Virus record (IMG/VR): IMGVR_UViG_3300031566_000057
Location: 1 to 50,862 of that record
Source of the DNA: a virus
Taxonomy: Duplodnaviria; Caudoviricetes
Direction: 5' to 3' (one strand)
Length of the DNA stretch: 50,862 nucleotides
Under the pieces are notes generated by a model. That model was not told the origin of the DNA and did no database searches. It worked only from the letters and a program-made list of their open reading frames with translations. Below are positions 1 through 50,862 of the stretch, piece after piece. Position 1 is the stretch's first letter; each line of letters begins with the position of its first letter. The translations under genes were made by a program, and so were the position numbers.

Positions 1-136
1 TGGTGTCGATTGGGCGAGGGCGTATGAGGTCGAAAAACCGGCAACGGCGAACCTCAACTACTTCGCCGGGCTGGTTGCTGGAGAGTCCGATTCCAAGACG
101 GGTCCGTGCTGGGTCAACATTATTGTGCCCGGCTCG
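1..136. repeat. Terminal direct repeat (circular assembly overlap), left copy
   Basis: 1-136 matches 50727-50862 except G127 vs A50853; unit genome about 50,726 bp. Confidence 0.97.
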
Positions 137-535
137 CCGCCTGGGGTCCTTTGCAAGGCGTGGACCTACGTAAGCTCCACGATTCTCACGACTCGGCTGG
201 CGGTCACTAACGATCAGTGGTATCTGACCACGGCCAGTTCCTCGACCGTCACGGTTGCAAGGGCGATGCAGACGTTGAACACCGCATCCACCGCCGCTCT
301 GACGTTGTGCCAACTGGAAGGTGCGCCGAGTGGGGGGATCGATGTTGTCGCCCTGGTTACTCCCACTGCCCCCACGCTTACCGGAGGCACCACTGGGGGC
401 GGGGCGGCCCTTGTTGGAACTACAGCATTGATCGGCGACATGCAGCGCGTCTTTGATGGCACGGCGAAGAACACAACGGACATTGCCGCGATCATCACGG
501 CGTTGAAGAACGCCAACCTGATGTCACTTACATAG
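1..535 (+). CDS. 3' part of short head-fibre/decoration protein (starts at 50599, crosses the join); paralog of 48550..50556
   Basis: Frame is continuous across the terminal repeat; shares N-domain (FAGxVA..ESD.K.GPCWVNII) and C-terminus (IITALxNANLM) with the long paralog. Confidence 0.85.
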   Translation, partial: GVDWARAYEVEKPATANLNYFAGLVAGESDSKTGPCWVNIIVPGSPPGVLCKAWTYVSSTILTTRLAVTNDQWYLTTASSSTVTVARAMQTLNTASTAALTLCQLEGAPSGGIDVVALVTPTAPTLTGGTTGGGAALVGTTALIGDMQRVFDGTAKNTTDIAAIITALKNANLMSLT

Positions 536-8240: not shown

Positions 8241-9755
8241 ATGCCAATCACGATACAGCATGGTAATGTAGGTCGCTACACCAAGATGATGTACCGTCTT
8301 GGCAGAGTGGAGCGCGCGGATGCGGAGGAACTCCGCCAGCGGAAGCTCCAGGACCAGCAGGCCAAAGAAGAGAGAGAGTGGGGCCGGTGGCAGCAGAAGC
8401 AAGCTGCTGAACAGGAGGCGTGGAGGGGGCAGGAGGCTACTCGACAGGGAGGGCGCAGGGAACTCGCACAGTACGGGACCGATGTTGGCTTTGCGATGGA
8501 GGCGTATCGGCAGCGCGGGAGGGAAGGTGCGCAGGGCCGTGCGAGAGGATATGCCCTTCAAGACCAGAAGGCCAAGAGGGACAAGGAGACTGCTGAGGCC
8601 AATGCGGAACTCGCCATCTTCTCGTCTACGGGTCTCCTGGAAGCTATTGATATAGCCGACCCGATGATGGGGAGGCTGACTCGACAAGTCCTGCAAACTG
8701 TTCAACAGGGGAAGGTCAAGCCTTCTGACGCTGCAAGGTTTCTCCGGGGGAAGATGACACAGTTCAATACCATGTCGAAGGTTCAGGCCCAAAGGGCTAA
8801 GGCGGGAGAAGCCACTGAGGCGAAGGGGAAGAAGCTCAAGCTGACAACCACGAACACGAACCTGAAGGCGGATGTCAAGAGGACGCAGGGGAACATCTCT
8901 CTGCTCCAGAAGCTCACTGCTGAGGCCACGAAGGTGAAGCAGGCGCGCAAACAGATAGCAACGGCGCGGAAGAAATACGAATCGGGAATCGACAAGGAAA
9001 TGACCGAGAGTACGGCCAGGGACAAGAATCAGGCGGCCTTGGAGAAAGCTCAGGACGCGGAAGCAACATCACTGGCGGCGATTGGCGCTGGGATGGTCGC
9101 CCTTGGATTAGATGGGCAGAACCCAAAGGCGGTGGAGGCTTTCATTGCGGCCCCTCTCGTCCATATCGCTCAGGCACAACAGCAGCTCCAGCAGCAGGAA
9201 GGCGCTCTTGCTGAGAACGTCACACAACAAGGAGAAGCCGAGTTGGGTATCGAGGCTGCCCAAGATCCGACACTCGGACCCCCAACTGACTGGGCCGCCC
9301 AGCGCGAGGCACAGGGGGCACAATGGGCAGAGGCTGATGCACAGGCACCCGCCCAGCCCGTTCCTGTCGAACCCATGATGGGTCCAAGTGAACCCCAAAT
9401 GGGTCCAGAGCAACCGCCCGCAGCCGAACCCGAAATGGCCGGGGTTCCCGACCCCAGCACAGGATCGGAAGAGCAGATCGCCGCCTTTGTGGGCCGGGAC
9501 ACTACCGCCGACCTTGCTCGCAAGATGACGCTTCGGATCGGGGAGGCGGAGACCCGCCGGTGGATTGCCCAATACCTTCTGCGCAAGTCCCCAAGCGAGG
9601 GGATTCGGCGCGAGGCTTACAAGCGGATGCTGGGTATGGCGGCGATGGGGATGATTCCTCCCCTTCGGAAAGGACAGCTTGACCCTGAAGACGAGGAGCA
9701 GTTCGTGATCTTCATGCAGGCTATCGGACTCTTGAGGCCAGCAAGTGCCGACTGA
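8241..9755 (+). CDS. Putative ejection protein 2, coiled-coil
   Basis: 504 aa Gln/Ala/Glu/Lys-rich; middle gene of a small-medium-large trio. Confidence 0.5.
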   Translation: MPITIQHGNVGRYTKMMYRLGRVERADAEELRQRKLQDQQAKEEREWGRWQQKQAAEQEAWRGQEATRQGGRRELAQYGTDVGFAMEAYRQRGREGAQGRARGYALQDQKAKRDKETAEANAELAIFSSTGLLEAIDIADPMMGRLTRQVLQTVQQGKVKPSDAARFLRGKMTQFNTMSKVQAQRAKAGEATEAKGKKLKLTTTNTNLKADVKRTQGNISLLQKLTAEATKVKQARKQIATARKKYESGIDKEMTESTARDKNQAALEKAQDAEATSLAAIGAGMVALGLDGQNPKAVEAFIAAPLVHIAQAQQQLQQQEGALAENVTQQGEAELGIEAAQDPTLGPPTDWAAQREAQGAQWAEADAQAPAQPVPVEPMMGPSEPQMGPEQPPAAEPEMAGVPDPSTGSEEQIAAFVGRDTTADLARKMTLRIGEAETRRWIAQYLLRKSPSEGIRREAYKRMLGMAAMGMIPPLRKGQLDPEDEEQFVIFMQAIGLLRPASAD

Positions 9756-36926: not shown

Positions 36927-38681
36927 ATGCCAGAAGTCATCGACAAGAACAGCGCCGTCAAGCGCCTTATGGAAGCTGTGCGCGTGGCGGACGCCCGCCT
37001 GAAGCCCTTCCGCGACAACCGCAGGACGTTTCTCAAGGAGTACGTCGGACCCTACTACACCAGGACTGGTGATGGTGCCGGCGCGAGTGCTACCGGACCC
37101 GAACCCATCAACATGCTCTTCTCCCTGGCCTCGGTGATCGTGCCCCACCTCGTCTCGCAGAATCCAAAGGCGATGGTCACTAGCAAGAACCCCCAACTCG
37201 GTCCCACTGCAAGGATGTTTGGGGAAGCCTGGAATGCCTTAGCCAAGGAAATCGACCTCTGGCGGGCACTGAGATCCTGCATCTTCGATGCCTTGTTTGG
37301 TATGGGGATTATGAAGGTGGGCTTGTCCCCAGGTGGGGAACTCATGGAGATGGAGGAGGGGTATCTCCACGACAACGGCCAAGTCTACGCCGATGCTGTT
37401 GACTTGGACGACTATGTAATAGATGCCGCCGCCAAGAGCCGGGAAGCAGCATCCTTCGAGGGGAACCGCTACCGCGTCCCCCTCGAATGGGCCTTGGAGT
37501 CCGAGCTATACGACCCCGACATTCTCCGCAAACTTCCAATCCACTATTCAGATAACACCAGTCGAGAACGTGGGGCCGCGGAACTCTCCCGTGGTGCGGC
37601 GAACTTACAGGAGGCGGCGGAGTACAGCGAACACGTCGAACTCCTGGACCTCTGGCGACCCCTGGAAGGTGATATAGTCACCATCCCCGGTAGTCCTGAT
37701 ATTGTGGTGCCCGACTTCATCGCCCAGTTTGAATACAATGGTCCTGAAAGAGGCCCCTTCGTTGACCTCAACTTCTTCCCGGTTCCGCATAACGTCATGG
37801 GGGTGTCCACAGTCGCCGAAGTCTATGACTTGCACGTGATGATTAACAAGCTCGCGCGCAAGGCCGGAAGGCAGGCGGACAGGCAGAAGGAACTGGTCTT
37901 GTTCGATGAGGTTGTTACCGAGGAGGCCGAAAGAGTCAGGGACGCCAGCGACGGGGAAATGGTGGGCGTGGGGAGTGTCTCTCGTTACGCCCAAGTGAGT
38001 TTTGGCGGAGCTAGTGAAGACACCTACAAGCAACTGGGTTTCCTGTTCGAGCAGTTCAGCCGTATCGCAGGGAACATCGACCTCATCGGGGGATTGCAAG
38101 CCGAAAGTAAGACACTAGGTCAGGACCAGATGCTCTACCAAGGGGCTTCTGGTCGCTTAGAGGACATGCGAACTCTCGCGCACACGTTTATGAAGTCCGT
38201 GGGCGAGCGGATGGCGTGGTATCTCTGGTACGACCCCCTGGCCGATCAGCCCATCACGGTCCAGGGCGCTGGTGGAGTACAAATCCCCGCCCAGTGGAAT
38301 GAGGACGAGAAGGAAGGAGAGTTCTTAGAACTCAACTTCGACATCGAACCCTACTCGATGCAGCGGGACGATCCTACCTCGAAGTTTGAGAGAGTGATGA
38401 CCTGGATCACCGGAGTTGTCCTTCCCACCGCGCAGATTGGGGCCATGCAGGGGGCGATACTCGACGTACCCAAGCTGGTGGAGATGACGGGGAAGATGCT
38501 GAACCTCCCAGAGGCGAGTGAGATTTACATGCCCGGCCCGCCGATGGGGATGGGGATGGATGCAGTTCAGCCTCCTGGGGGTAGCAACACCACGAATGTA
38601 AGCTCGGGGCGCGGAGGAGGGTCGCGCCCTGAGCCTTCTAATACGCAGTCTTCCAAACCTGCACAGGGGCCGGGTCAATGA
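36927..38681 (+). CDS. Portal protein
   Basis: 584 aa after TerL; PINML..PHLVSQNP, DALFGMGIMKVG, P22-like layout. Confidence 0.85.
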   Translation: MPEVIDKNSAVKRLMEAVRVADARLKPFRDNRRTFLKEYVGPYYTRTGDGAGASATGPEPINMLFSLASVIVPHLVSQNPKAMVTSKNPQLGPTARMFGEAWNALAKEIDLWRALRSCIFDALFGMGIMKVGLSPGGELMEMEEGYLHDNGQVYADAVDLDDYVIDAAAKSREAASFEGNRYRVPLEWALESELYDPDILRKLPIHYSDNTSRERGAAELSRGAANLQEAAEYSEHVELLDLWRPLEGDIVTIPGSPDIVVPDFIAQFEYNGPERGPFVDLNFFPVPHNVMGVSTVAEVYDLHVMINKLARKAGRQADRQKELVLFDEVVTEEAERVRDASDGEMVGVGSVSRYAQVSFGGASEDTYKQLGFLFEQFSRIAGNIDLIGGLQAESKTLGQDQMLYQGASGRLEDMRTLAHTFMKSVGERMAWYLWYDPLADQPITVQGAGGVQIPAQWNEDEKEGEFLELNFDIEPYSMQRDDPTSKFERVMTWITGVVLPTAQIGAMQGAILDVPKLVEMTGKMLNLPEASEIYMPGPPMGMGMDAVQPPGGSNTTNVSSGRGGGSRPEPSNTQSSKPAQGPGQ

Positions 38682-38860: not shown

Positions 38861-40192
38861 ATGAAAGTCACCCTCATTGCAGGGAAGTATTTCAATTCCT
38901 GGGAAGCCCTTGGACTGGGGTACATCGGGGCGTACCTGAAGCGGCACTGTGATGTGGAATTGAACTTCTTCCATCCGAACTTCGACTCGGACCATGCCAT
39001 TCTCGAAGGCACCGCGGGCACCGATATTTGCATGTTCTCCTGCACCTCTCCGGCAATAGATTATGCCTTGACGCTGGCCGGAGCGATCAAGTGCCGGGAT
39101 CCCAAAGTTCGCACTGTGTTCGGTGGGTATCACCCATCGGCCCTGCCGGGGGATGTTAAACAAGCCGGGTTTGTCGATTACGTGGTTGTCGGCGAGGGCG
39201 AAGTTCCGGCCGAGGCAATCGTTCGGGGTTATCCATATTGGCGTCTCGACGGCCGCCGCATGTCTTTCGACGAACTCTCCTGGCCCGACCGGGAACTGAT
39301 CCGCAACGAGCGCCACATCGCCGTCGCGGAGAAGGATACGGGGCTCCGCATCACCTCCTTCCAAAGTCGTAGAGGTTGTCCATACGGGTGTAAGTATTGC
39401 CTGGACGGCCAGAAGGTGATGTACAAGGGCAAACCCTGCGAGCGCGACATCAAGGACCTATTAACCGAGATCGACTCCGTAGCATACAAGTACCGACTCG
39501 ACCTCATCAAGTTCTGCGATCCTACGTGGAACACCAATCCGCAGTACGTGAAGGACTTCTGCAAGGAAAAGATCCGCTGGAAGCTGCACATCCCCTTCTT
39601 TGCGAACATCCACGCCCGTAATGGGGATCAGGAGATGTTCGACATGATGGCCGAGGCGAACTGTACAACCATCGGCTTGGGGGTGGAGACGGGTTCCGAG
39701 CGTATCTTGCAGCAGATGGGCAAGGGAACCACGAAGGATGACGTGCGCGGAACCGTCCGCATGGCGAAGAACTCTGGCATTGGCATTCGGGGCTACTTTC
39801 TGACAGGGATGCCGGATGATGACAACGAGTCTCTTCAGGAGACGATGGACTTCGCGGACGAGTTGGAACTGGACGAATACGGGTTCACCATCCTCTGTCC
39901 CTATCCGGGGACCGCCTTTTATGCGGAAGACCCGGAGAGGTTCAAGGACGTGAACTGGGAAGGGGCTGACGAGTACCGCAACGACTTCTGGCGCACTAAG
40001 TACCTCACGAACGCGGAATTAGTTGCATGGCAGGACAGGTTGATGGAGCGCTTCTGCAAGAAGCTCACGGGACGGAACAAGACAGTAGGGAAAGGGACAG
40101 GAAATGAAGGTAGTGGTGATTCCCCCGGAGCAACCGGGTGCACTCCCGACTCCGACGGAGAAGGAACTGGTAGCCCTTCTGCAAGGCGCTGA
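38861..40192 (+). CDS. B12-binding radical SAM enzyme (class B methylase-like)
   Basis: LGLGYIGAYL, VFGGYHPS, VGEGE, RGCPYGCKYC, GVETGS, PYPGT. Confidence 0.9.
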   Translation: MKVTLIAGKYFNSWEALGLGYIGAYLKRHCDVELNFFHPNFDSDHAILEGTAGTDICMFSCTSPAIDYALTLAGAIKCRDPKVRTVFGGYHPSALPGDVKQAGFVDYVVVGEGEVPAEAIVRGYPYWRLDGRRMSFDELSWPDRELIRNERHIAVAEKDTGLRITSFQSRRGCPYGCKYCLDGQKVMYKGKPCERDIKDLLTEIDSVAYKYRLDLIKFCDPTWNTNPQYVKDFCKEKIRWKLHIPFFANIHARNGDQEMFDMMAEANCTTIGLGVETGSERILQQMGKGTTKDDVRGTVRMAKNSGIGIRGYFLTGMPDDDNESLQETMDFADELELDEYGFTILCPYPGTAFYAEDPERFKDVNWEGADEYRNDFWRTKYLTNAELVAWQDRLMERFCKKLTGRNKTVGKGTGNEGSGDSPGATGCTPDSDGEGTGSPSARR

Positions 40193-40961
40193 AGGCGTAG
40201 TCGCGGGGACGGAGCAGTATACCCGAACCGTACTCTCGCAGTGTCCGAAGCTTCGCGTCATCTCTCGCATGGGCATCGGGGTTGATAACATCTGTCTGGA
40301 ATACTGTAAGAACCGCGGCATTACAGTCATGGCGGTTCCCAATGGCCCGACGCAGGCCGTGGCAGAACACACCATCGGGCTCATGCTCGCCCTGCTCAGG
40401 CATACCGTGGACAACCACGCAAGTATGTTGGCGGGGGCGTGGGAGCCGAAGATCGGGAAGCTGCTCTGCAACCAGACTGTAGGCGTTATAGGGCTCGGGC
40501 GCATTGGCTGTACGGTGGTCCGACTTCTCCGGGCGTTCGGAGCGAAGGTCATCGGGAACGAGATTGAGGAGAATCAGTTCAATGCTTCTCTTGGGCTGGC
40601 ATGGACCTCACCCATCGACCTGCTTCTGATGTCGAACATCGTCTCCTTGCACGTGCCGCTCACGGAGTCCACCCGGCACATGATTGACGATGTGGAGTTG
40701 GCCTGGATGCGGCCCGGCACGCTCCTTGTGAACACGGCACGCGGGTATGTGGTTAATGAAGGGGCGGTGTATAGTGCCCTCCAATCCGGTCATCTCGGGG
40801 CTTACGCAGTAGACGTGTTTGCGCACGAGCCCTATGCGAGTTTTCTGTGCGGTTGTCCCAACGTGTTGATGACTCCCCACATCGCCGGATGCACGGAAGA
40901 GACCTGGGAAATGATGCGCGAGACGGCTATCCGTCATTGTAACGAGGCTCTCAATGGGTAA
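40104..40961 (+). CDS. D-2-hydroxyacid dehydrogenase (SerA-like)
   Basis: GIGVDNI, AVAEHT, GLGRIG, NTARG, DVFAHEP, TPHIAG. Confidence 0.9.
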   Translation: MKVVVIPPEQPGALPTPTEKELVALLQGAEGVVAGTEQYTRTVLSQCPKLRVISRMGIGVDNICLEYCKNRGITVMAVPNGPTQAVAEHTIGLMLALLRHTVDNHASMLAGAWEPKIGKLLCNQTVGVIGLGRIGCTVVRLLRAFGAKVIGNEIEENQFNASLGLAWTSPIDLLLMSNIVSLHVPLTESTRHMIDDVELAWMRPGTLLVNTARGYVVNEGAVYSALQSGHLGAYAVDVFAHEPYASFLCGCPNVLMTPHIAGCTEETWEMMRETAIRHCNEALNG

Positions 40962-41301
40962 AGGAAGCAAGCGACGGCCCGGCAACACCGAAGCATACCG
41001 ACGGGGCCACAAGAGAGCTTTTGGGACTGGGCCGCGAGACTCCACCAGTGGCACCTTTGTACTGCGGAATGGCACTCTCGTACCTGGCAGAGTAAACAAG
41101 TGCGACAGCAAGAATATCGAGAGCCTTGCTGCGGGGGTACAGGCGGAACAAGCCCCACAGGCCCGGAAGGACATTGCTGAGGCAAAGCTGTCGGGGGTGA
41201 AGGTACTACCTAACGGCAACTACGTCTTTGCCACCCGTCGGGACAAGCTGCGGTTTCTGAAACACGCCAAGATGCACGATAGGGACGAAGTGAGAGGATA
41301 G
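40954..41301 (+). CDS. Small basic phage protein
   Basis: MGKGSKRRP start; SLAAGV..Q...G..VF..R motif. Confidence 0.6.
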   Translation: MGKGSKRRPGNTEAYRRGHKRAFGTGPRDSTSGTFVLRNGTLVPGRVNKCDSKNIESLAAGVQAEQAPQARKDIAEAKLSGVKVLPNGNYVFATRRDKLRFLKHAKMHDRDEVRG

Positions 41302-41304
41302 GGA

Positions 41305-43536
41305 ATGATTACGAATTGGGACGGGGAAAAGCAGTTCATGATACCCTTGCACCGGGCGAAGATGGGGTTGGATGTGTTCCTCTGTTGCCCAGGACCGTCA
41401 TTGGCGGATGTGGACACCAGCATCCTGCGCGGCCCAGGTCGGTATGTGGTGGCCCTGAACACGGCCTACCCCGCAGTGAAGCCTGATCTCTGGATCGGGA
41501 TGGACCTACCTTCATGCTATGACCGGGGCCTCTGGTGGGAACCCTTCCCGAAGATCGTCGGGAACAAGTTCGCCGATACCCCCTTCGGGGGGATGACGGT
41601 CAAGGAACTGCCAAACGTCTGGCTACTCTCTGGTACAGGTACTACGGCGGCCGGTAAGGAGTTCTTCAGCCGCAACGAACAGAACTCCTGGCACATCTGG
41701 GTCGGGAACGCCTACACCACAGCTCTTCATGTTTGCATCTGGCTGGGTGCGCGGACGATCAACCTGGTGGGGTGTGACTTCGGGGGCAAGACCGACTACC
41801 ACGACGGGCGGAAACTCTCCCCCGAACACCGGGAGCGGAACAGGATACTCTATGAAGCGCTTGTGCAGGACACCAGGCTTCTGGCGGAAGAGGGGAAGGC
41901 ACATGGGTTGGAACTTGTCTCCTGTACGCCAGATTCTCCGATCAACACCTTCCTGAACTATGTACCTGTGGAACGGGCCATCGCCGCCGCTGAGGGCGCG
42001 ATACCATTACCTGTTGACAACCGAATATGGGATTCTGAAAACGCCGAAATGCTCCAGTGGTCTACCCAGCATGAGGGAGACGGGGTTGTCGTCGTCGCGG
42101 ATCACCAGATGGAGTGGATGTTGCCCTGGTGGTATCAGAACCTTCGGGAGCACAACCCCGATGTTCAGATAGCCTTCTGCGACTGGGGCATGACCGAAGA
42201 GGGCAAGAAGTGGTGTGCGGAGCGGGGGCTTGTCTATCCCGTACTCAAACCCGCCAACCTGATGCACCGCAAACCCTTTGCGATTCTTCATGCACCCTTC
42301 TCCCGGATCATCTGTATGGATGCGGATTGCGAGATCAAAGCAGATATTACGCCCCTGTTCGAGAGGGGGAGCATGTGCGTCACCGAAGATCCCTTCAACC
42401 CGTGGTCCAAGGACTATCGGCCAGTCCCATATTCGACGGGGATGATCGCCTGTCATCATGGAGAACCCCTGATTGACGAATGGGCGCGGTATGTGCTCCA
42501 ACCGGAGTTAGCCAAGGGGGAGGTCTGGACCGACGATCAAGCGTTCAACTTGATGATCGCGGACATGGAAGAGGGGTTAAGCGACACTTCACGCCTCCTC
42601 GTAACCCTGGAACCCGAATGGCAGTGGCTCCGCCTGGCTTCGAGGTCGGGGGACTCAACAGCCAAGATCATCCACTGGACCGGCGCAGAGGGCAAGCAGA
42701 TCATCGACCGGAAGCGCAAGGAGGCATCTCATGGGGTGGAGCGAGATAGTGTTACTACTGGTGGGGAGCATGATAATCCTGTGGTGGAAACTGGTCCGCT
42801 CGTCTCCATCCTGATGCCCGCCTTCAACAGTTCGGAGTTCATCGAGAAGGCGATCCAATCCTGTATCGACCAGACCTATCAGAACTGGGAACTGATTGTC
42901 CTGGACGATGGTAGCAAGGATCAATTGCAAACCGCCAACATCATGCAGATGATGGCCAATAAGGACAAGCGAATCCGTCCCTTCTTCGAGCATCATCGGG
43001 GCAGACTGGAGGCGCACAATCGCTGCTGGCGACTTTGTAAGGGAGACATCATTGCCCGGCTGGACTCCGACGACTTGCAGGAACCGACACGACTGGCAAA
43101 GCAAGTGGCGCATTTGCAGAACTCCACCGATTCTATCGTCAGTTGTGAGAGTTATCACATTGATCGGGATGGGGCTTCTCTCGGGCGGCGTCCATGTTCT
43201 CCGTTTGGCAACTGTGTCGAACTTGCCACGACAAATATGACGGGATCGGCAACTTATTGGCATCCTCCGCAAGCAGGGAATATGATTACGCGCTCGTTGT
43301 ACGAAGCGATCGGGGGACTTCCGGGAGACAACAACTACTGTACCGAGGAGGGGTTTCTTTACGCTGCCATCTTATTGGGACACACTATCGGCCATGTCCC
43401 CGAAGCCTTATACGTCTACCGTCGGTATCCCGAGCAGATGTCCCAGAATGACCGTTGTGGCGCAGACGAAATAGCATGGAAACAACAGTCACGTCGGTTT
43501 ATAGAAGAAATGCGAACTCGGGGACTCACGGAATGA
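41305..43536 (+). CDS. Tri-domain glycosyltransferase: Maf/DUF115-like + GT8/GT77-like + GT2
   Basis: GPSL..ALN..D..LG...LVGCDF; KPFA..MDAD..DQ..IIHWTG; VSILMPAFN..DDGS..LDSDD. Confidence 0.85.
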   Translation: MITNWDGEKQFMIPLHRAKMGLDVFLCCPGPSLADVDTSILRGPGRYVVALNTAYPAVKPDLWIGMDLPSCYDRGLWWEPFPKIVGNKFADTPFGGMTVKELPNVWLLSGTGTTAAGKEFFSRNEQNSWHIWVGNAYTTALHVCIWLGARTINLVGCDFGGKTDYHDGRKLSPEHRERNRILYEALVQDTRLLAEEGKAHGLELVSCTPDSPINTFLNYVPVERAIAAAEGAIPLPVDNRIWDSENAEMLQWSTQHEGDGVVVVADHQMEWMLPWWYQNLREHNPDVQIAFCDWGMTEEGKKWCAERGLVYPVLKPANLMHRKPFAILHAPFSRIICMDADCEIKADITPLFERGSMCVTEDPFNPWSKDYRPVPYSTGMIACHHGEPLIDEWARYVLQPELAKGEVWTDDQAFNLMIADMEEGLSDTSRLLVTLEPEWQWLRLASRSGDSTAKIIHWTGAEGKQIIDRKRKEASHGVERDSVTTGGEHDNPVVETGPLVSILMPAFNSSEFIEKAIQSCIDQTYQNWELIVLDDGSKDQLQTANIMQMMANKDKRIRPFFEHHRGRLEAHNRCWRLCKGDIIARLDSDDLQEPTRLAKQVAHLQNSTDSIVSCESYHIDRDGASLGRRPCSPFGNCVELATTNMTGSATYWHPPQAGNMITRSLYEAIGGLPGDNNYCTEEGFLYAAILLGHTIGHVPEALYVYRRYPEQMSQNDRCGADEIAWKQQSRRFIEEMRTRGLTE

Positions 43537-43607
43537 AGAGGGCGCGGTCTATAGCGCGGCGTCTGGAGACGGGGAACTGATATGTCGTTACTGCGAGTGG
43601 CCGAAAG

Positions 43608-44378
43608 ATGAATGCCGCAATCATAACCGCACGGGGTGGATCGTGCAGCCTGTCGAACAAAAACCTCTGGCCGATCCTGGGTGAGGCGATCCTGTCTCGG
43701 ATCATTCGGACTGCACAGGCGGCTGATCTTGTCTCTGCCGTCTATGTGGATACGGATGGGAAGGAGATAGCCAAGTGCGCATCCCGGTGGGGATCGCAGA
43801 TTCTTGACCGACCGGAATATCTCGCCGAGGGCACGGGCAATCACGGGGAAGTCATCCAGAAGGCGGTTCGCGTCGTAAATGCCCGGCAGCGCGGGCACTT
43901 GGAAAACGTCGTGATCCTCCTCGGTAATTCCTGCATGTACGGCCCGGAACTCATTGACGAAGCTCTTGCGACGTTGCAGGCCCGCCCCGACCTGACAGGG
44001 GTGATGTCGGTCTGGCAGGCGGCAGACGACCATCCTTTACGCGCAATGGAGATGGACCAAGAAGGCATACTTCTTCCCTGGCGTGATCCCCATCGGGACG
44101 TGCCCAATAACCGACAGGCATACTTGCCCGCCTTCTTCTACGATCAAGGAGTCTGGGCGTTTCGGAAGGAATGCGTTGAGAAGCACGACGGCCCGAGTCC
44201 CTGGTGGTGGATGGGAAACAAAGTAGGCGCGATTGTCCGCCCGTGGATTGGTGGCAGGGATATTCATAACTTGTTGGATGTTGCAGTGACGGAGTGGTGG
44301 GTTGGAAGAAACATACGCAGACTACGTTCGGGGCAAGCGCCTGGTGATCGTGGGTCCGGCCCCACAGATCCGGGGTAG
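43608..44378 (+). CDS. CMP-ulosonate synthetase-like cytidylyltransferase (NeuA/KdsB family)
   Basis: ITARGGS..L.NKN, VDTDG..I, DRPEYL, DIH...D. Confidence 0.85.
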   Translation: MNAAIITARGGSCSLSNKNLWPILGEAILSRIIRTAQAADLVSAVYVDTDGKEIAKCASRWGSQILDRPEYLAEGTGNHGEVIQKAVRVVNARQRGHLENVVILLGNSCMYGPELIDEALATLQARPDLTGVMSVWQAADDHPLRAMEMDQEGILLPWRDPHRDVPNNRQAYLPAFFYDQGVWAFRKECVEKHDGPSPWWWMGNKVGAIVRPWIGGRDIHNLLDVAVTEWWVGRNIRRLRSGQAPGDRGSGPTDPG

Positions 44379-44967
44379 CTGTCAGGGGGACTACATCGAC
44401 TCGCACGATGTAGTCATTCGCATTGCCAACGCACTTCCGATCCCCGAACACCTTCGGTGTGATGTTGGGTCACGAACGGATGTCTTGTATACCAGCTTCT
44501 ACAGTGGACCGAATCCCCAGGAATGTAACCCAGTGGCCCCGGAGATGTGGAAGGCAAATGGGGTGCAATGGGTGTGCCTTTCGTCAAAGTTTGACGACCC
44601 CTATATCTGGCCGGGATTGAATAGGTTCGTCGCCTTGAATGCCGGCCGACTCCCATTGTACATGGTTCCTCCAGACGACTGCCGGGTGCTGGAGGCCGAA
44701 CTAGAGTGTAAGCCAAATACCGGGTTCGTCGCCATCTGGGATTCGCTGCGGTTTGATATTCAGAGCCTTTATGTGACGGGGATTTCCTTCTTTCGGGGTG
44801 GGTATCTGACAGAGTACCGCCCGATGAATGAAGAGGAAGCGATGGCATTCTTGGGGAAAGGGGAACACAAACAACCGCCGCAGATTGCTAAGATGCGCAA
44901 GTTAGTCCAGACGGATAGCAGGCTGACGGTGGATGCAACCCTTCAGGCGATCCTGGACGAAACATGA
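44302..44967 (+). CDS. GT29-like sialyltransferase
   Basis: Sialylmotif L-like VIVGPA...GDYIDSHDVVIRI..LP....DVGSRTD; S-like PNTGFVAI; VS-like His; TTG start. Confidence 0.8.
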   Translation: MEETYADYVRGKRLVIVGPAPQIRGSCQGDYIDSHDVVIRIANALPIPEHLRCDVGSRTDVLYTSFYSGPNPQECNPVAPEMWKANGVQWVCLSSKFDDPYIWPGLNRFVALNAGRLPLYMVPPDDCRVLEAELECKPNTGFVAIWDSLRFDIQSLYVTGISFFRGGYLTEYRPMNEEEAMAFLGKGEHKQPPQIAKMRKLVQTDSRLTVDATLQAILDET

Positions 44968-45653
44968 TCCTCTTGCCTGACGACCATGCGGTGTACATCT
45001 CACATCCCAGATGTGGCAGTCACACGATGTTCGCCGTACTCAAGAAGTATTATGGGGGATTGTTCTTCACCGGCGACGGATATCACAGTCGCATCCTCCC
45101 GGAGTCGGTAGCGGGATGGTATGTCTTCTCCACCTGTCGTAACCCCTATTCTCTAGCTGTATCCATCTGGCGCGCGACTACCAGTACGGGAAGTGACTTC
45201 CAGCGAGAGAGATGGAAGTTCTCTGAGCACATGCAGGACGCGGACGCGGATACCTATCTGGATGGACGTGCGGCGGGGAGTACGGAGAGTCGGTCATTCG
45301 GGGCGTTTGCGAGACTACTGGCGAAGACGGATTTCACCGACCCCAACTATCTGCTGATGGACTGCCGGTTCTCTCCACTGGCGTATCCCCAGCACATCTG
45401 GTTCTCCTTGGTTGTGTATCAGAACGTCTTGTGCAGGGTAATGCGATTGGAGAGATTGGAAGCGGAGTTTCGACTACTTCCGTTCTGGCACGGACCCAAC
45501 TTTCTTCCCAGGGCGGCTAATAGCACCAGTGACGGCAAGGGACCCCCGTGGCAGAAGTTCTACGAACAGCCTGGGGTGGCAGCGGACATAGAGAAATGGG
45601 CGGGAACGGACTTTGAGATGTTTGGGTACAGGAAAGGAAACTATCGTGACTGA
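44964..45653 (+). CDS. Sulfotransferase (Sulfotransfer_2-like)
   Basis: ISHPRCGSHT, RNPYSLAVSIW, PQ, RLERLEAEF, DFEMFGY. Confidence 0.8.
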   Translation: MILLPDDHAVYISHPRCGSHTMFAVLKKYYGGLFFTGDGYHSRILPESVAGWYVFSTCRNPYSLAVSIWRATTSTGSDFQRERWKFSEHMQDADADTYLDGRAAGSTESRSFGAFARLLAKTDFTDPNYLLMDCRFSPLAYPQHIWFSLVVYQNVLCRVMRLERLEAEFRLLPFWHGPNFLPRAANSTSDGKGPPWQKFYEQPGVAADIEKWAGTDFEMFGYRKGNYRD

Positions 45654-46329
45654 GGAATCCTGTGTAATGGCGGAGCGGGAGGTAGGAAAGTTCCGTCCCG
45701 GATGGCAACCGTTCTTCGACCGGCTTCTGGAGTTGCCGTTTCATTCGGTTGTAGACTTCGGATGTGGCTATGGTTTTCAGGTCCGCGATTTCGCCAAGGC
45801 CGGCAAGTCGGCAGAGGGTGTTGACAGGATCATTCATCCCTTTGCGAGGGCAGAGGCGGAGCAGAACGGCTACATACTCTGGGAGAAGTCCTGGGATGAA
45901 CTTGCCCCGGCAAGCTACGGGGCGGGCTGGTCGCACCACTGTCTTGAGCACTGCCGTGACCCCGTAGGTACACTTCATACATGGGGGCAAATCATCCAAC
46001 CTGGAGGCTTGCTATGTGTGATGGTTCCGATCCACCGCACTGATGCCCTGGCGGGACACATTGCCACGGGTTGGAACATCAGCCAACTGATGTACCTGCT
46101 GGCAGTCGCAGGATGGGATTGTCGGGACGGGGAGTTCCTGGTCGCCGATGAGACTATCGGTGGCATTGTCAGACGACCGGAACAAATGATTATGGCCGAC
46201 CCTTGGCAGGGGCTTGGTCCCATCCTTCCTCTGCTGCCCTTCACCTGCGATCCGGCGACAACCAGGGGGTTCGAGTACAAGACTACCAACGTCAACTGGC
46301 GTGGTAACAAATCCGGCACTACCCGATAG
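45646..46329 (+). CDS. Class I SAM-dependent methyltransferase
   Basis: VVDFGCGYG, HHCLEH..DP, PGGLLCVMVP. Confidence 0.85.
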   Translation: MTEESCVMAEREVGKFRPGWQPFFDRLLELPFHSVVDFGCGYGFQVRDFAKAGKSAEGVDRIIHPFARAEAEQNGYILWEKSWDELAPASYGAGWSHHCLEHCRDPVGTLHTWGQIIQPGGLLCVMVPIHRTDALAGHIATGWNISQLMYLLAVAGWDCRDGEFLVADETIGGIVRRPEQMIMADPWQGLGPILPLLPFTCDPATTRGFEYKTTNVNWRGNKSGTTR

Positions 46330-46385
46330 CCGTTGGTCTACGTTGATCTGCGAGATTGGGATGTCCCATTACTAGGAGTTTTATC

Positions 46386-47342
46386 ATGGCTGAGGAAGCC
46401 ACAGAGACAGAGGAAGTCACACCAACAGAGGCAGTCACACCAACAGCAGCAGAAGAGGCGTTCTTCACAGAGAAGGAGCCTGTGGATGCGCTTGCTCCGC
46501 CCCAGGAGGATGCCGAGGACAAGGGTTCGGATGCACCTGAAGCTACCGAGCCCAAAGTCCCCGAAGCTACCGAATGGACCGCGAAGCAGGCCAGTGCGTT
46601 ACGGCGGTTCGGGTACGACCAGGACGAGTTGGAGAAGGCGTTCGGTCCCGACAAGGCGCAGACCTTCGCTGATAAGCTGGCGAAGACTCATGCCGATGTC
46701 GGGAGGCGCTATGCCCAGCTAGGTCGGGCCGAACGAAAACCCGAACCAACCGCAGAGGCGCCCCCGGAAACCGGGGCCGAAGAGGCGCTTGAGTTCAAGT
46801 ACGACCCGGAAGAGTCGGTGCTGAGTGCTACCGAAGGTCAGGCTGTCGAGAAGCTCTTTGCCACGGTGAAGGGTCTTCGGGAGAGCCTGGCCGGGGCCAC
46901 GAAGCACCTGGAGGTTCAACGAGCACAACAAAGGGAGCAGACAGCGGACACCTGGTTCGCGTCTCTCGATACGGACGTATACCCCATATTCGGTGAGGGG
47001 CCTGGCGGCAAGCTCGAAGAGGATTCCGAAGAGCTTGCGGCACGGCTGGAGATTCTGGACTATGCCCGGGAACTCACTGCCGGTCACCTCGCTGTACATG
47101 GGGAGGAAATGCCCATCGAGGATGCGCTAACCGACGCGCTGCTGCACTGTCATCCCGATGCAAGAGCCGCGGCGAGAAAGAAGACCACGGCGAAGAAAGT
47201 CAAGACCCGATCAGGCCAGCTATCCGCCCGCCCCGGAACACGTCAGGCGCAGGGTGCGCCCAAGGACGTGCATGAGGCGGCGCTGGACGCAATGGCCGAA
47301 CATCAAAAGACCAAGGGCCACGGCTTCTTCAAAGACGTGTGA
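46386..47342 (+). CDS. Capsid scaffolding protein
   Basis: Acidic helical protein directly upstream of MCP; AGGAG RBS. Confidence 0.7.
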   Translation: MAEEATETEEVTPTEAVTPTAAEEAFFTEKEPVDALAPPQEDAEDKGSDAPEATEPKVPEATEWTAKQASALRRFGYDQDELEKAFGPDKAQTFADKLAKTHADVGRRYAQLGRAERKPEPTAEAPPETGAEEALEFKYDPEESVLSATEGQAVEKLFATVKGLRESLAGATKHLEVQRAQQREQTADTWFASLDTDVYPIFGEGPGGKLEEDSEELAARLEILDYARELTAGHLAVHGEEMPIEDALTDALLHCHPDARAAARKKTTAKKVKTRSGQLSARPGTRQAQGAPKDVHEAALDAMAEHQKTKGHGFFKDV

Positions 47343-47367
47343 TCTCGGGCGGTAACTGGAGGGGATC

Positions 47368-48492
47368 ATGGCAGACGGAATAGACATGAGACGCACTGCG
47401 TCCCTGTCGAACACAACCCTTATGGACATTCTGAAGAACACTCAGGATGTCGAACCGTATGATGGGAGTTTCGAGACACTCCAAAACCTGCACGATTACG
47501 AAATCTGCAACCGATGGATGGCCAAGGACAAGATCACCTTCGATGGTGGTACGTCCATCGTCCGTCATGTCCAGGTCACGGAAAGCGGGGCGGCCCAGTG
47601 GGTCGTGCCCTATCAGACCACCGAGCCCAGCGTTACGGACGTGCAGGCTCGGATCAGGGCGAACTGGTGCTATATCCAGACGGATTACTCCATCGCCCGC
47701 GAAGAGATGCTGGTCAACCGTTCGCGCCCGAAGCTCATCGACCTGATGAAGTCGCGCAGGCTTGCGGCGATGATGGACCTGGCGGAGCTTCTGGAGCTGT
47801 GGGTCTGGCGTTCTCCCACCAACTCATCCGATGCACTTCACCCGTTCGGCGTGCCGATGTACATCACGCCGATCATCACGGCACAGACGTATGGTCACGT
47901 CGGATGCAATCCCCTCTACAACGACACCTCTGCGGTGGCGGACTGTGCGGGGATTGACTCGTCCTTGTCGGCTTACTCTCGGTGGCGCAACTATGCCGAC
48001 CGCTGGAATCTGGCCGACAGTTTCGAGGGCGTGATTGAGGATGAGGATATCATCAAGATCACCCGCATGTTGCGTCGGCTGCACTTCAAGTCACCGACGT
48101 TCGTGACGGATATCGACAACGGTTCCTACAAGAACCTGCGTCTGTATACGGGCGAAGAGGTGATCGAGTCTCTGGAAGAGCGTGCCCGGAAGCAGAACGA
48201 TCAGTTGGGTTCCGATGTCGCCCGGTACGCCGGGGCTACGATCATCAAGAACCTGCCGGTCATCTGGATCGAACGGCTGGACTACGCGAACTCCTCGACG
48301 TATCCGTTCTACGCGCTCAACCACACCTACTTCAAGCCCTTCGTCATGGAAGGGAACTGGCTGAGAGAGAACGAGCCCATCAGAAGCAAGGGCCAGCACA
48401 ACGTGTTCACGACCTTCGTGGACGCGCAGATGAACATCATCTGCACCAACCGGCAGCGCGCGGGTGGGATCATCAGCGCTGTCGTCGCATAA
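47368..48492 (+). CDS. Major capsid protein
   Basis: 374 aa after scaffold; FDGGTSI, NIICTNRQRAG end; strong RBS. Confidence 0.8.
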   Translation: MADGIDMRRTASLSNTTLMDILKNTQDVEPYDGSFETLQNLHDYEICNRWMAKDKITFDGGTSIVRHVQVTESGAAQWVVPYQTTEPSVTDVQARIRANWCYIQTDYSIAREEMLVNRSRPKLIDLMKSRRLAAMMDLAELLELWVWRSPTNSSDALHPFGVPMYITPIITAQTYGHVGCNPLYNDTSAVADCAGIDSSLSAYSRWRNYADRWNLADSFEGVIEDEDIIKITRMLRRLHFKSPTFVTDIDNGSYKNLRLYTGEEVIESLEERARKQNDQLGSDVARYAGATIIKNLPVIWIERLDYANSSTYPFYALNHTYFKPFVMEGNWLRENEPIRSKGQHNVFTTFVDAQMNIICTNRQRAGGIISAVVA

Positions 48493-48510
48493 CCGGAGGA
48501 ACTCACACAC

Positions 48511-48547
48511 GGGCGCAGGGTCTACCCCTGCGCCCCGGAGGGTTAAC
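48511..48547 (+). promoter_or_regulatory. Hairpin+RBS leader shared by both head-fibre paralogs
   Basis: GGGCGCAGGG/CCCTGCGCCC stem; GCGCCCCGGAGGGTTAA here and at about 50579. Confidence 0.6.
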
Positions 48548-48549
48548 AA

Positions 48550-50556
48550 ATGACTCAAACCACGTACAAGAGTGAGAAGCTCTCTAAGAAGAGAGTCTGG
48601 TACACCGGCACAGATACCCTCTACGAAGGGTACGCTCTGTGCTACGACCGCGATATCGGCACGGTGACTGCCGTGGATATCGCGCGGGCTTACTCTGTTC
48701 TGAAGCCCGCGACGGCGTATCTAAACTACTTCGCCGGTGTTGTGGCTCCCGAGAGCGACAACAAGAAAGGCCCGTGCTGGGTCAACATCATCGAGCCGGA
48801 CGGTAGTGGTGGAAGGATCTGCAAGGGTTACTGCTACGTCAACGCCACCATTCTCACGACTCGGGTTGCAGTGACCGATGGGCAGTATTACCTCACTTCC
48901 ACAAGTTCGTCCAACGTGACGGTTGGCCGGGCGATGCAAACCCTGAACACGGGGACCACGGCGGCCCTGACGATGATCTCGCTGGAGGGGGTTAGCGCCA
49001 GTGCGACGGTTGATGCAGCCGCGCACGTCACCAACCTGACGAACTCCACTGGTGGCACGAGTGAGGCGGCAGAGACGCTGGCTGATGTCTTGTCTGCCCA
49101 GACGGCCCCGGACCTTACGGGCACGACTTCGGGTGCTGCTACCACTGTCACGTTCTCGGCCACGTCTCCCACCCTGACTGGTGTTACCACGGGAGGCGGA
49201 GTGGCCATCGTAGGCTCCGACACAGGGCCGACACTGACGGGTACGACCACGGGGGCGGCGGCGTCTGTTACGTTCTCCGCCACGGCTCCTACCCTCACCG
49301 GAGTCACCACCGGCGGCGGGGTCGCTATCGCAGGTTCCGATACTGGTCCTACTCTGACCGGCACGACCACGGGAGGTGTGGCGACTGTTACATTCTCCGC
49401 CACATCCCCGGCCTTGAGTGGTACGACCAGCGGCGGCGCAACTACGGTCACATTCAGCCAGACAGCTCCAACTCTCACGGGTGGAACCACTGGTGGGGGA
49501 GTGGCCCTAGTCGCAAGCGATACCGGCCCGACCCTTACAGGTACGACCACCAGTGCTGCGGCCACCGTTACCTTCTCGGCAACCTCACCCACCCTTTCTG
49601 GTACGACCAGTGGCGGCGCAACAACGGTCACGTTCTCGGCGACTGCGCCCACGCTGACCGGAGGTACGACTGGTGGTACTGTGGGCGTTGCATTCACCGC
49701 AACGGCACCGACACTGACGGGGGGTTCGGCTGGTGGGACCGTGGCTCTTATCGGCACTACGGCGCTGTATGGTGATGTCGCGCGTGCCTTCAACGCGACC
49801 GCCCTGAACACGGCCGACATTGCCAGTTTGTTTGTTCTGGACCAGCGGGTTGGTGATGCCACCGCCAAGAACACGGCCGACATCGCCAGCCTCTTTGTGC
49901 TGGACCAGAGAATTGGTGCTGCGGCAATGGCGAACCAGGCCGACATCGCCTCTCTGTTCGTTCTCGACCAGAGAATCGGCGAGGGCGTCAACCATGTCCG
50001 ATCCGACATGACCAACGCGGTTGCGGACATTAAGCGGTGTGCGGATGCAACGGCAAAGAACGCCGCGGATGTTGCCGCACTGTATGTTCTCGACCAGCGC
50101 GTTGGTGCTGCGGCCATGACAAACAAGGCCGACATTGCCTCTCTCTTTGTACTCGATCAGCGCATTGGTGCTGGGGTTGCTGCCCTCAAGACAGACATGA
50201 CGAGTGCCGTCGCTGACATCAAACGCACGGCGGATGCTGTCGTGAAGAACTCGGCGGACATTGCAAGTCTGTTCGTGCTCGATCAGCGCATTGGTGCTGG
50301 CGTTGCTGCTCACACCGTAGACATCACATCTGCCGTGGCGGACATCAAACGGACGGCGGATGCGGTGGTCAAGACCAATGCTGATGTCGCCGCACTGTTC
50401 GTGCTCGTCCAGCGATTGGGTCACGCGATTCTCCACCAGAAGGCCGATGTTGGGGGCATCATCAGCACCACCAACAACAACCTGACGGACCTCACGGAGA
50501 AGATCGACGACATTATCACCGCGCTGGAGAACGCCAACCTGATGGCGACTGCGTAA
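48550..50556 (+). CDS. Long head-fibre/decoration protein with mirrored repeats
   Basis: Follows MCP; 11x20-aa Thr/Gly repeats, 11x21-aa heptad repeats, KIDDIITALENANLM head-fibre-type end. Confidence 0.75.
   Translation: MTQTTYKSEKLSKKRVWYTGTDTLYEGYALCYDRDIGTVTAVDIARAYSVLKPATAYLNYFAGVVAPESDNKKGPCWVNIIEPDGSGGRICKGYCYVNATILTTRVAVTDGQYYLTSTSSSNVTVGRAMQTLNTGTTAALTMISLEGVSASATVDAAAHVTNLTNSTGGTSEAAETLADVLSAQTAPDLTGTTSGAATTVTFSATSPTLTGVTTGGGVAIVGSDTGPTLTGTTTGAAASVTFSATAPTLTGVTTGGGVAIAGSDTGPTLTGTTTGGVATVTFSATSPALSGTTSGGATTVTFSQTAPTLTGGTTGGGVALVASDTGPTLTGTTTSAAATVTFSATSPTLSGTTSGGATTVTFSATAPTLTGGTTGGTVGVAFTATAPTLTGGSAGGTVALIGTTALYGDVARAFNATALNTADIASLFVLDQRVGDATAKNTADIASLFVLDQRIGAAAMANQADIASLFVLDQRIGEGVNHVRSDMTNAVADIKRCADATAKNAADVAALYVLDQRVGAAAMTNKADIASLFVLDQRIGAGVAALKTDMTSAVADIKRTADAVVKNSADIASLFVLDQRIGAGVAAHTVDITSAVADIKRTADAVVKTNADVAALFVLVQRLGHAILHQKADVGGIISTTNNNLTDLTEKIDDIITALENANLMATA
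49102..49761 (+). repeat. 11 x 60-bp repeats (TxPxLxGxxxG...)
   Basis: Counted in the translation. Confidence 0.9.
49783..50475 (+). repeat. 11 x 63-bp coiled-coil repeats (ADIASLFVLDQR / DMTSAVADIKR types)
   Basis: Counted in the translation. Confidence 0.9.
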
Positions 50557-50598
50557 GCCACCAATATGAGGGCGCGTAGCGCCCCGGAGGGTTAATTC

Positions 50599-50862
50599 AT
50601 GGTGCAAACCACCTACAAGACCGAGAAACTCAACAAGAAGCGTGTGTACTACACGGGGACCGCCACTCTCTATGAAGGGTACGCCCTGTGTTACAACCGC
50701 GACTCCAACACTGGTACTACCATCACTGGTGTCGATTGGGCGAGGGCGTATGAGGTCGAAAAACCGGCAACGGCGAACCTCAACTACTTCGCCGGGCTGG
50801 TTGCTGGAGAGTCCGATTCCAAGACGGGTCCGTGCTGGGTCAACATTATTGTACCCGGCTCG
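50599..50862 (+). CDS. 5' part of short head-fibre paralog (continues to 535 across the join)
   Basis: MVQTTYKTEKLNKKRVYYTG matches MTQTTYKSEKLSKKRVWYTG; GGAGG RBS. Confidence 0.85.
   Translation, partial: MVQTTYKTEKLNKKRVYYTGTATLYEGYALCYNRDSNTGTTITGVDWARAYEVEKPATANLNYFAGLVAGESDSKTGPCWVNIIVPGS
50727..50862. repeat. Terminal direct repeat, right copy
   Basis: Matches 1-136 with one mismatch. Confidence 0.97.

Follow-up and report, generated by a model that had tools for sequence, protein, structure and literature searches.

The virus genome IMGVR_UViG_3300031566_000057 (Duplodnaviria; Caudoviricetes), analysed here over its whole length of 50,862 nt (hereafter the window), carries directly after its major head protein gene an open reading frame (ORF) for a protein of 668 residues, P0001 (48550..50556, plus strand), which joins an N-terminal domain with 272 relatives to a shaft of two successive repeat arrays, and in these arrays the unit counts are equal and the repeat subtypes follow one another in mirrored order. 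P0001 is very probably a trimeric capsid fibre on a cement-type anchor. The equal counts, the mirror order, the matched ages of the duplications, the longer helices of relatives with two units and the joint absence of tail motif and outbound units from certain family members point to a coupling of the two arrays, for which the best single explanation, offered tentatively and with a little less than even confidence, would be a shaft folded back on itself as a trimer of hairpins.

Architecture of the fibre protein

All parts of P0001 are given here with their positions on the plus strand. The protein begins with a capsid-anchoring domain (approximately residues 1-150; 48550..48999), predicted from a model of its short paralogue and from Foldseek comparisons to adopt the beta-tulip fold of cement proteins, and continues through a linker (49000..49101) containing a divergent twelfth outbound unit, 'A0' (..LTNSTGGTSEAAETLADVLSAQ), which resembles the first unit of the relative P0007; the HMMER match with P0007 covers query residues 1-216. 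Then come eleven contiguous Thr/Gly-rich units of 20 residues without a single indel (A1-A11, residues 185-404; 49102..49761), a turn or helix start of ten residues, ALYGDVARAF (residues 405-414; 49762..49791), and eleven units of 21 residues, that is, of three heptads each (B1-B11, residues 415-645; 49792..50484). A preliminary description made from the sequence had counted eleven A units, a turn and eleven B units from nt 49102 onwards, and this count is borne out, with the refinements that the turn reads ALYGDVARAF and that B1-B10 are clear and B11 (625-645) is degenerate, sharing at most 4 of 21 residues with any other unit. The conserved C-terminal tail (..IDDIITALENANLMATA; residues 646-666; 50485..50553) forms a twelfth stretch of 21 residues, and the very end of the protein reads ..ITALENANLMATA. 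The unit counts are therefore 11:11, or 12:12 when A0 and the tail stretch are included. Tandem Repeats Finder independently returned a period of 120 nt for the A array and of 63 and 126 nt for the B array. As a whole, P0001 has no sequence match in Pfam, PHROG or PDB, and the Pfam scan did not find in it the Peptidase_S74 chaperone domain (PF13884) that is present in P0081, a large fibre described below.

The two arrays differ in composition and periodicity. Thr and Ser make up 41% of the A array and Gly 19%, only 4 of its 220 residues are charged, and its hydrophobic periodicity is 2 and 4. The B array follows a single heptad frame over residues 415-668, with its strongest hydrophobic period at 3.5 residues, which upholds the earlier view of its units as coiled-coil repeats; large hydrophobic residues occupy 64% of the a positions, 50% of the d positions and 39% of the e positions, although most B units carry Gly at position 21 and AlphaFold2 (AF2) drew some of the 'L-type' units, at low confidence, as strands. 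These L-type units, seven in number, carry the uninterrupted hydrophobic run L-F-V-L at heptad positions d to g, a face of the helix that is unlikely to be solvent-exposed on a bare stalk and is probably covered by an outer layer. By analogy with the trimeric relatives of the anchor fold and with the trimeric protein gp45 of Shigella phage B2, the B array would form a three-stranded coiled coil.

Mirrored order of the repeat subtypes

The preliminary description had sorted the units by short motifs and had proposed that the subtypes pair in reverse, A(i) with B(12-i). All of its motif labels are present: they run V T V T S G T S G along A2-A10 and D M K D M K W K W along B2-B10, and nine of the nine positions agree with that pairing, two of the label pairs depending on short motif windows only. 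When whole units are compared, A7 shares more residues with A2/A4 (16/20) than with A10 (13/20), and B2 more with B8 (18/21) than with B5 (16/21). Clustering without labels groups {A2,A4,A7}, {A3,A5,A8} and {A1,A6,A9} in the one array and {B4,B7,B9} and {B3,B6} in the other, with {B4,B7,B9} having no more than 6 of 21 residues in common with the other seven clear B units. Each A2-type unit is followed by an A3-type unit and each B4-type unit by one of the 'DA..K' type; in a notation of singles (s) and dyads, the A array becomes s[XT][XT]s[XT]sss and the B array sss[K-DA]s[K-DA][K-DA]s, an exact reversal, where three dyads and five singles could be arranged in 56 orders.

Mantel correlations on the unit-identity matrices give the same picture without recourse to motifs. 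With natural unit boundaries, and with k denoting the sum of the paired unit numbers, the mirrored arrangement reaches r=0.74 at k=11 and r=0.185 at k=12, against at most 0.26 for any parallel arrangement, and when phase and offset are varied over 367 combinations for each orientation, the mirrored maximum is r=0.90 (95th percentile 0.80) and the parallel maximum 0.36. The mirror order is thus confirmed as real. As for the pairing rule itself, the reversal stands, and A(i)-B(12-i) fits all nine labels, but whole-unit similarity favours k=11 over k=12; the true register lies at about 11.5, and the distinctive A element GGGVAxxxSD-TGPTLTGTTT straddles two nominal units.

How readily such a pattern may arise was gauged with a null model in which two arrays grew independently by random tandem duplications of blocks of one to three units, equal final counts being given, with 3000 runs per setting. 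A mirrored correlation of r>=0.74 appeared in 1.6-2.6% of the runs, and one of that size in either orientation in 3.0-5.0%. The pattern is therefore unusual, yet possible by chance, and since independent duplications reach it in about 2% of simulations, the earlier statement that simple slippage cannot produce it was too strong. It is also worth mentioning that A2-A11 contain only three Asp residues (D224, D264 and D324), which by calculation lie 9.0, 7.0 and 4.0 units from the turn, and that the three ADIKR motifs of B9, B7 and B4 lie 8.8, 6.8 and 3.8 units from it; this match in height depends on the mirror order and lends it no independent support.

Integrity and duplication history of the arrays

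An assembly or annotation artefact, or an inverted DNA duplication read on the other strand, would be the most trivial source of mirrored arrays, and two antisense ORFs, of 415 residues (48888-50135, minus strand) and 340 residues (49585-50607, minus strand), do overlap them; having no homology support, these frames are taken as by-products of a GC-rich, periodic coding sequence and not as genes. The plus frame, for its part, extends a domain with 272 relatives. No DNA inverted repeat links the arrays, the sole inverted pair within 48550-50862 being one of 16 nt and 81% identity located elsewhere; the units differ in length at the DNA level (60 nt for A, 63 nt for B), and duplicated units are only 56-80% identical in DNA (62-90% in protein). 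Moreover, contigs from three soil-metagenome runs, built with a different assembler, match the array stretch with 0-1 differences and no indels, and two of them cover 47300-50862 whole; the three runs may be the source of the window itself and so back the assembly, not an independent occurrence. Contigs and lack of an inverted repeat together rule an artefact out, and what probability it keeps is negligible.

The duplicated blocks preserve some of the history of the arrays. Blocks of two units have a synonymous divergence (dS) of 0.96 in the A array (A[2,3]/[4,5]) and of 0.82 in the B array (B[7,8]/[9,10]), and the blocks of three units, nearer to the turn, reach 1.34 in the A array and are saturated in the B array. 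The ratio of non-synonymous to synonymous divergence (dN/dS) of the blocks, 0.06-0.27, means that the unit sequences are under purifying selection; A2 and A4, for instance, share 18 of 20 residues despite a dS of 1.35. The capsid-proximal blocks of two units thus look younger and the turn-proximal blocks of three units older, in the same order in both arrays. This shared order fits paired duplications at matching heights and speaks against the 'Russian-doll' growth envisaged earlier, in which insertions would be nested at the turn.

Anchor domain, family and gene order

A HMMER search of the whole of P0001 against 1.84 billion representative proteins returned its 272 relatives at E<=1e-3, and among the 150 matches listed 149 were made through anchor residues 1-150, P0081 alone matching through the A array. 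The anchor is the common N-terminal element of a large modular family (P0002-P0154) that is almost without annotation. Some members consist of nothing but this domain of about 150 residues, others (350-430 residues in total) append a lectin-like or beta-helix-like module, and in others Ser-rich helical repeats start directly after the anchor; a further group of about 200-270 residues carries one or two units of the 'LTGGTTGG' type, a turn and a helix ending in ..ITALKNANLMA. Relatives with helical repeats directly on the anchor (P0044, P0050, P0082 and others) have neither A-type units nor the ..NANLMA tail. Eight family members compared with PHROGs gave a single weak C-terminal match (phrog_12102, E 7.6e-4) and otherwise nothing, and tblastn searches of 50,697 cultured-phage records with P0001, the 58-residue module and P0026 found no match.

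The fold of the anchor was assessed on the short paralogue P0006, with whose N-domain that of P0001 is 65% identical. An AF2 model computed with an alignment of 31 members of the one- and two-unit group, chosen by eye, has a predicted local distance difference test (pLDDT) score of 83.6 overall, with values above 90 in the N-domain (residues 11-150), 51-74 in the A unit and 81-86 in the helix 186-213. Searched with Foldseek against the PDB, the model had eight matches at E<=1e-3, all those shown being capsid cement or decoration chains with template modelling (TM) scores by target of 0.55-0.65; the matches at E 1e-4 to 1.5e-2 include proteins of Pam3, TW1, Sf11, HFTV1, T1, E217, XM1 and Pa193 and the N-terminal base of phi29 gp8.5. 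Against predicted viral structures (BFVD) there were 113 matches at E<=1e-3, and these include a 'DUF2190 family protein', a 'capsid fiber protein' and, on the same anchor, collagen-repeat fibres of 576-794 residues. The model thus predicts a beta-tulip fold of the cement type. At the sequence level, the Pfam families Phage_cement_2 (PF09956), Phage_cement (PF22758) and Phage_head_fibr (PF11133) did not match P0001, and none of 33 N-domains matched them at E<0.01, one of the 33 reaching E 0.059 (PF22758); ESM Atlas neighbours that carry these families serve as leads only.

Gene order agrees with this assignment. The major head protein gene of the window (47368..48492, plus strand; phrog_9953, E 4.7e-11) ends 58 nt before the start of the fibre gene at 48550, and at each of the 15 viral loci found with a family motif the family gene directly follows a homologue of this head protein. 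In the nearest phage (L008), whose major capsid protein is 53% identical, the family gene is a two-unit form.

Three groups of solved structures offer points of comparison. Like P0001, phi29 gp8.5 combines a beta-tulip base on the capsid with a long, repetitive, trimeric shaft, and its base is matched by the model (6qyy_B, E 1.9e-3, TM by target 0.65); its description includes trimers at quasi-three-fold axes and a suggested role in host adhesion (passages of PMC7602432). The gp8.5-type shaft is a helix-turn-helix supercoil, whereas the sequence of P0001 places units of 20 non-helical residues before heptad units of 21 residues, in mirrored order, and P0001 has no match to Phage_head_fibr (PF11133), the Pfam family of the gp8.5 type. 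The cement and decoration proteins of Pam3, TW1, HFTV1, E217 (gp24), Pa193 (gp25), XM1, T1 and Sf11 share the fold of the N-domain and the neighbourhood of the capsid gene; they end after the cement domain or a short extension, whereas P0001 adds a shaft of 518 residues. Solved cement proteins are described as trimers at local three-fold axes (parts of PMC10329688 and PMC11456595), and solved beta-tulip relatives as trimers at three-fold or quasi-three-fold axes (likewise in passages of PMC10329688, PMC11456595, PMC7602432 and PMC12494034); judged by these relatives of its fold, the anchor of P0001 would place a trimer at such axes of its own capsid.

The third comparison is B2 gp45 (PDB 9D82), which alone among solved proteins resembles the shaft module in sequence. 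Positions 161-215 of 217 in a profile built from the 31 short forms match residues 43-99 of 9d82_J with E 2e-4, a match made by the family profile only, P0001 alone as query having no match in the PDB. As in the family, a stretch rich in Gly and Thr and a helix lead to a C-terminal motif that ends the protein, ..LKAAGIMA in gp45 and ..LKxAG(I/L)MA in the family. Unlike P0001, gp45 has no beta-tulip anchor, sits at quasi-six-fold axes and consists of a single module without arrays, the present comparison being one of sequence. It is described, in part of PMC11654681, as a homotrimer of 99 residues on the capsid, related to annotated 'head fiber proteins' and without a known structural homologue. 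Anchor fold, gene order and the match to gp45 together mean that the identity of P0001 as a trimeric capsid fibre is well supported, and the assignment as a head fibre in the preliminary description holds.

One further protein resembles P0001 through its shaft only. P0081 (1601 residues), a large unrelated fibre, has about sixteen repeats of 20 residues (T.PTLYGN..GNTAT.T.S.), with 35% identity to the A array. Its repeats precede a Peptidase_S74 endosialidase-chaperone domain (PF13884) and have no helical partner; unlike P0001, it lacks a cement anchor and a heptad array, and its C-terminal domain is Peptidase_S74.

Short forms and the search for further long arrays

The window encodes a second member of the family, the short paralogue P0006, in tandem with the long one, and the two are 66-77% identical over their matched parts. 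P0006 has 220 residues and consists of the same N-domain, one LTGGTTGG unit, the turn ALIGDMQ and a helix-type end of 36 residues containing DGTAKN and ..ITALKNANLMSLT. The paralogue noted in the preliminary description, with one LTGGTTGG unit and a DGTAKN helix, is therefore real; it also shares the tail motif of P0001, as do at least 28 of the 31 aligned relatives and B2 gp45. Its gene is split in the record because the linearisation point falls inside it: the 5' part, an ORF at 50599..50862 (plus strand), runs on across the genome junction, as the overlap of the genome ends implies, and the 3' part (2..535, plus strand) supplies the remainder of the N-domain, the single A unit, ALIGDMQ, the DGTAKN helix and the tail. 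The 15 related loci have one family copy each within the stretch covered, and in the window the two paralogues may compete for capsid sites or partition them. P0006 is present in the protein collection searched; the exact sequence of P0001 is absent from it.

Among the relatives, the four forms with two units have helices of 41-62 residues, compared with a median of 33.5 residues in 22 forms with one unit (Mann-Whitney p=0.006). In P0001, the automatic division assigns 258 residues to the part before the helix and 260 to the helix itself. The alignment of P0011 with A10-A11-turn-B1-B2 is colinear (41% identity, E 4e-9). Relatives with more than two units were found in none of the collections searched, whether by word index, by HMMER, or in viral contigs, metagenome contigs and cultured phages. 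A word-index search with residues 385-668 found no long-array relative, the repeat part of P0011 as query retrieved only P0011, and scans of viral contigs with the N-domain, the B region and the capsid protein gave no long-array relative either. A degenerate ADIASLFVLDQR pattern had no match in viral contigs, a looser one had two chance matches in unrelated proteins of metagenome contigs, and among the ESM Atlas neighbours of residues 365-668, the best of which scored 0.75, none was meaningful.

A fold-back shaft and its alternatives

In the arrangement proposed here, the beta-tulip domain (about 150 residues) would fix the trimer to the capsid, where the solved relatives make local three-fold positions the most likely sites. 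The chain would run outward as the twelve Thr/Gly-rich units A0-A11, turn at ALYGDVA and return as a continuous three-stranded coiled coil of twelve three-heptad units, every outbound unit having a returning unit as its neighbour, with A(i) paired to B(about 11.5-12 minus i), and the conserved ..ITALxNANLMA tail would end near the anchor domain. Such a shaft could gain length only if both arms were duplicated at matching heights, and this would keep the counts equal and the subtypes mirrored. The short paralogue would be a one-unit version of the same design that shares or partitions the capsid sites, and the fibre would probably serve, as other head fibres have been proposed to do, in adhesion or spacing at the surface of the capsid. 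It is important to stress that the data show the gene, the arrays, their mirror order, the heptad frame, the anchor fold and the synteny, and that the trimeric state, the fold-back topology, the unit-to-unit contacts and the function are what we infer. A shaft of this kind would explain together the equal counts, the mirror order, the matched ages, the helix lengths, the single heptad frame and the L-F-V-L runs. A more specific version, possible but rather doubtful, is a self-registering trimer of hairpins in which Thr/Gly strand units and helix units would pair through a subtype 'code', with an outer layer that is perhaps glycosylated: units rich in GG would face the L-F-V-L helix units, the Asp-bearing GSD-TGP junctions would face the ADIKR units, and the fibre could become longer only if the two arms underwent compensating duplications at one height, the protein counterpart of compensatory changes in the stem of an RNA.

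Working likenesses, without homology, exist for both aspects of the proposal. In the trimer of hairpins of class I viral fusion proteins, an outer layer runs back along the grooves of a central three-helix coiled coil, and the antiparallel coiled-coil arms of SMC and Rad50 proteins consist of two arms of matched length; unlike that of the fusion proteins, the outer layer proposed for P0001 would be a non-helical repeat array and the N-terminal arm.

A number of points nevertheless weigh against a fold-back shaft. A helix of 21 residues rises by about 31 Å, and by this reasoning an A unit of 20 residues packed alongside would be confined to a rise of about 1.5 Å per residue, a value that suits neither an extended strand nor any standard fibre fold; we know of no outer-layer fold with such a rise. 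The register is ambiguous by half a unit, as the two Mantel values for k=11 and k=12 show, and side-chain volume complementarity between the arms singles out no register. Across 26 relatives, the lengths before and within the helix are not significantly correlated (r=0.27, p=0.19), the automatic division having failed in 5 of 31 rows, where it fell at residue 1, and these having been dropped; with the five mis-split rows kept, the correlation is negative (r=-0.48). P0011 begins its post-turn part with a K-like element and so does not clearly follow the subtype code. The AF2 monomer of P0001 computed from the single sequence draws the A array as a stacked, beta-solenoid-like body without a hairpin, at a pLDDT of 43.9 that makes it weak evidence. 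Since P0081 has similar repeats of 20 residues without a helical partner, A-type units can probably form a fibre alone. Finally, the pattern was picked after the fact from a very large scan, and a coincidence at the 2-5% level has to be reckoned with. A trimer prediction for residues 265-561, made with three copies, without an alignment and without controls, scored 0.01 and counts neither for the hairpin nor against it.

The main competitor, a serious one though somewhat doubtful, is a linear fibre of two segments, in which the A array would form a trimeric beta shaft of its own, similar to a triple beta-helix and rising, by analogy, by about 14 Å per unit, the B array would continue as a coiled coil with the tail at the distal end, and the mirror order would be coincidental. 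Most known phage fibres are linear. P0081 sets repeats of the A type before a chaperone domain typical of triple beta-helices, the low-confidence AF2 monomer stacks A units on each other, and independent histories arrive at a mirror in 1.6-2.6% of simulations, or at either orientation in 3-5%, for a finding that was selected after the fact. On the other hand, a linear fibre requires several coincidences jointly, namely 11:11 counts, reversed blocks of 2+2 and 3+3 units and matched dS ranks, and it leaves unexplained the helices about 20 residues longer in two-unit relatives, the L-F-V-L runs on the helix surface and the members that attach a helix directly to the anchor and lack both A units and tail motif. 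An unlikely alternative is that the A array serves as a flexible or stiffened Thr-rich spacer, O-glycosylated in the manner of mucins by the sugar cassette of the phage, and that the B array alone is a structured stalk. The Thr and Ser content and the scarcity of charge in the A array, and the location of the cassette inside the head module, would suit such a spacer, and phage glycosyltransferases have been suggested to glycosylate the capsid of a mycobacteriophage (PMC11256854); but old duplicates are strongly conserved (18 of 20 residues in A2/A4, block dN/dS down to 0.06) and the 20-residue spacing is strictly kept without indels, both untypical of disorder, and mirror order and equal counts would go unexplained. 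Glycosylation as such is compatible with a hairpin. A fourth arrangement, pairing between molecules, would lay the A arm of one extended trimer antiparallel along the B arm of another, on a neighbouring site or particle. The same i+j=12 mapping would follow for pairing within and between molecules, yet this would require a capsid at each end of a shaft about 35 nm long to carry the two anchors, and one-unit relatives and the short paralogue are too short for it; as no evidence points to such pairing, we consider it highly improbable.

What the analysis adds depends in part on which of these arrangements is correct. The cement-anchored capsid fibre is already known from phi29 gp8.5 and from collagen-type fibres, and relative to these the double, mirror-ordered shaft would be new. 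The shafts of such fibres are usually treated as simple linear rods. Keyword searches of the open-access literature, main texts being the scope, found no description of a mirrored double-array head fibre, nor of a 'trimer of hairpins' for a bacteriophage fibre. In the mirrored subtype order, long-range antiparallel packing would have left its signature in the sequence, a rare case in which no structure is needed to read it. A hairpin, if true, would represent a new fibre architecture, with a beta-type outer layer on a trimeric coiled coil, would show the growth of a repeat protein under a pairing constraint, and would provide a tunable scaffold of defined length for capsid display. Should the mirror be coincidental, P0001 would still be an unusually long family member, albeit of ordinary interest. 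P0001 also points to a large, uncultured, modular family of 272 anchor relatives with many distal modules and scant annotation.

Genome and neighbouring genes

The virus record, with an estimated completeness of 100%, represents a complete genome. Its ends, 1-136 and 50727-50862, overlap by 136 nt, of which 135 are identical, and the genome is therefore complete and either terminally redundant or circularly closed.

The sugar-modification cassette (38861-46329, plus strand) lies inside the head module, with the portal gene (36927-38681) before it and the scaffold-like and capsid genes behind it. All its genes are on the plus strand, and they encode a B12-binding radical-SAM enzyme (38861-40192), a D-2-hydroxyacid dehydrogenase (40104-40961), a GT2 glycosyltransferase of 743 residues with a sialyltransferase-like N-terminal part (41305-43536), a cytidylyltransferase (43608-44378) and a methyltransferase (45613-46329). 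The cassette may glycosylate virion proteins such as the fibre, with its array of 41% Thr and Ser. The ORF that follows, between cassette and major head protein (46356..47342, plus strand), encodes an acidic protein without a family match in Pfam and PHROG searches, which may be called scaffold-like on the strength of gene order. At the 5' end of this gene, about three copies of an 18-nt tandem repeat (46392-46452) encode ..TEEVTPTEAVTPT...

Elsewhere in the genome, a protein of 1730 residues (9745-14937, plus strand) contains a DarB-like antirestriction region (phrog_10089, E 8e-26, residues 1036-1279) and is possibly an ejected or internal virion protein. A protein of 271 residues (6332-7147, plus strand) matches, over residues of about 130-250, many PHROGs of tail fibres and collagen-like minor tail proteins (best E 7.6e-18).

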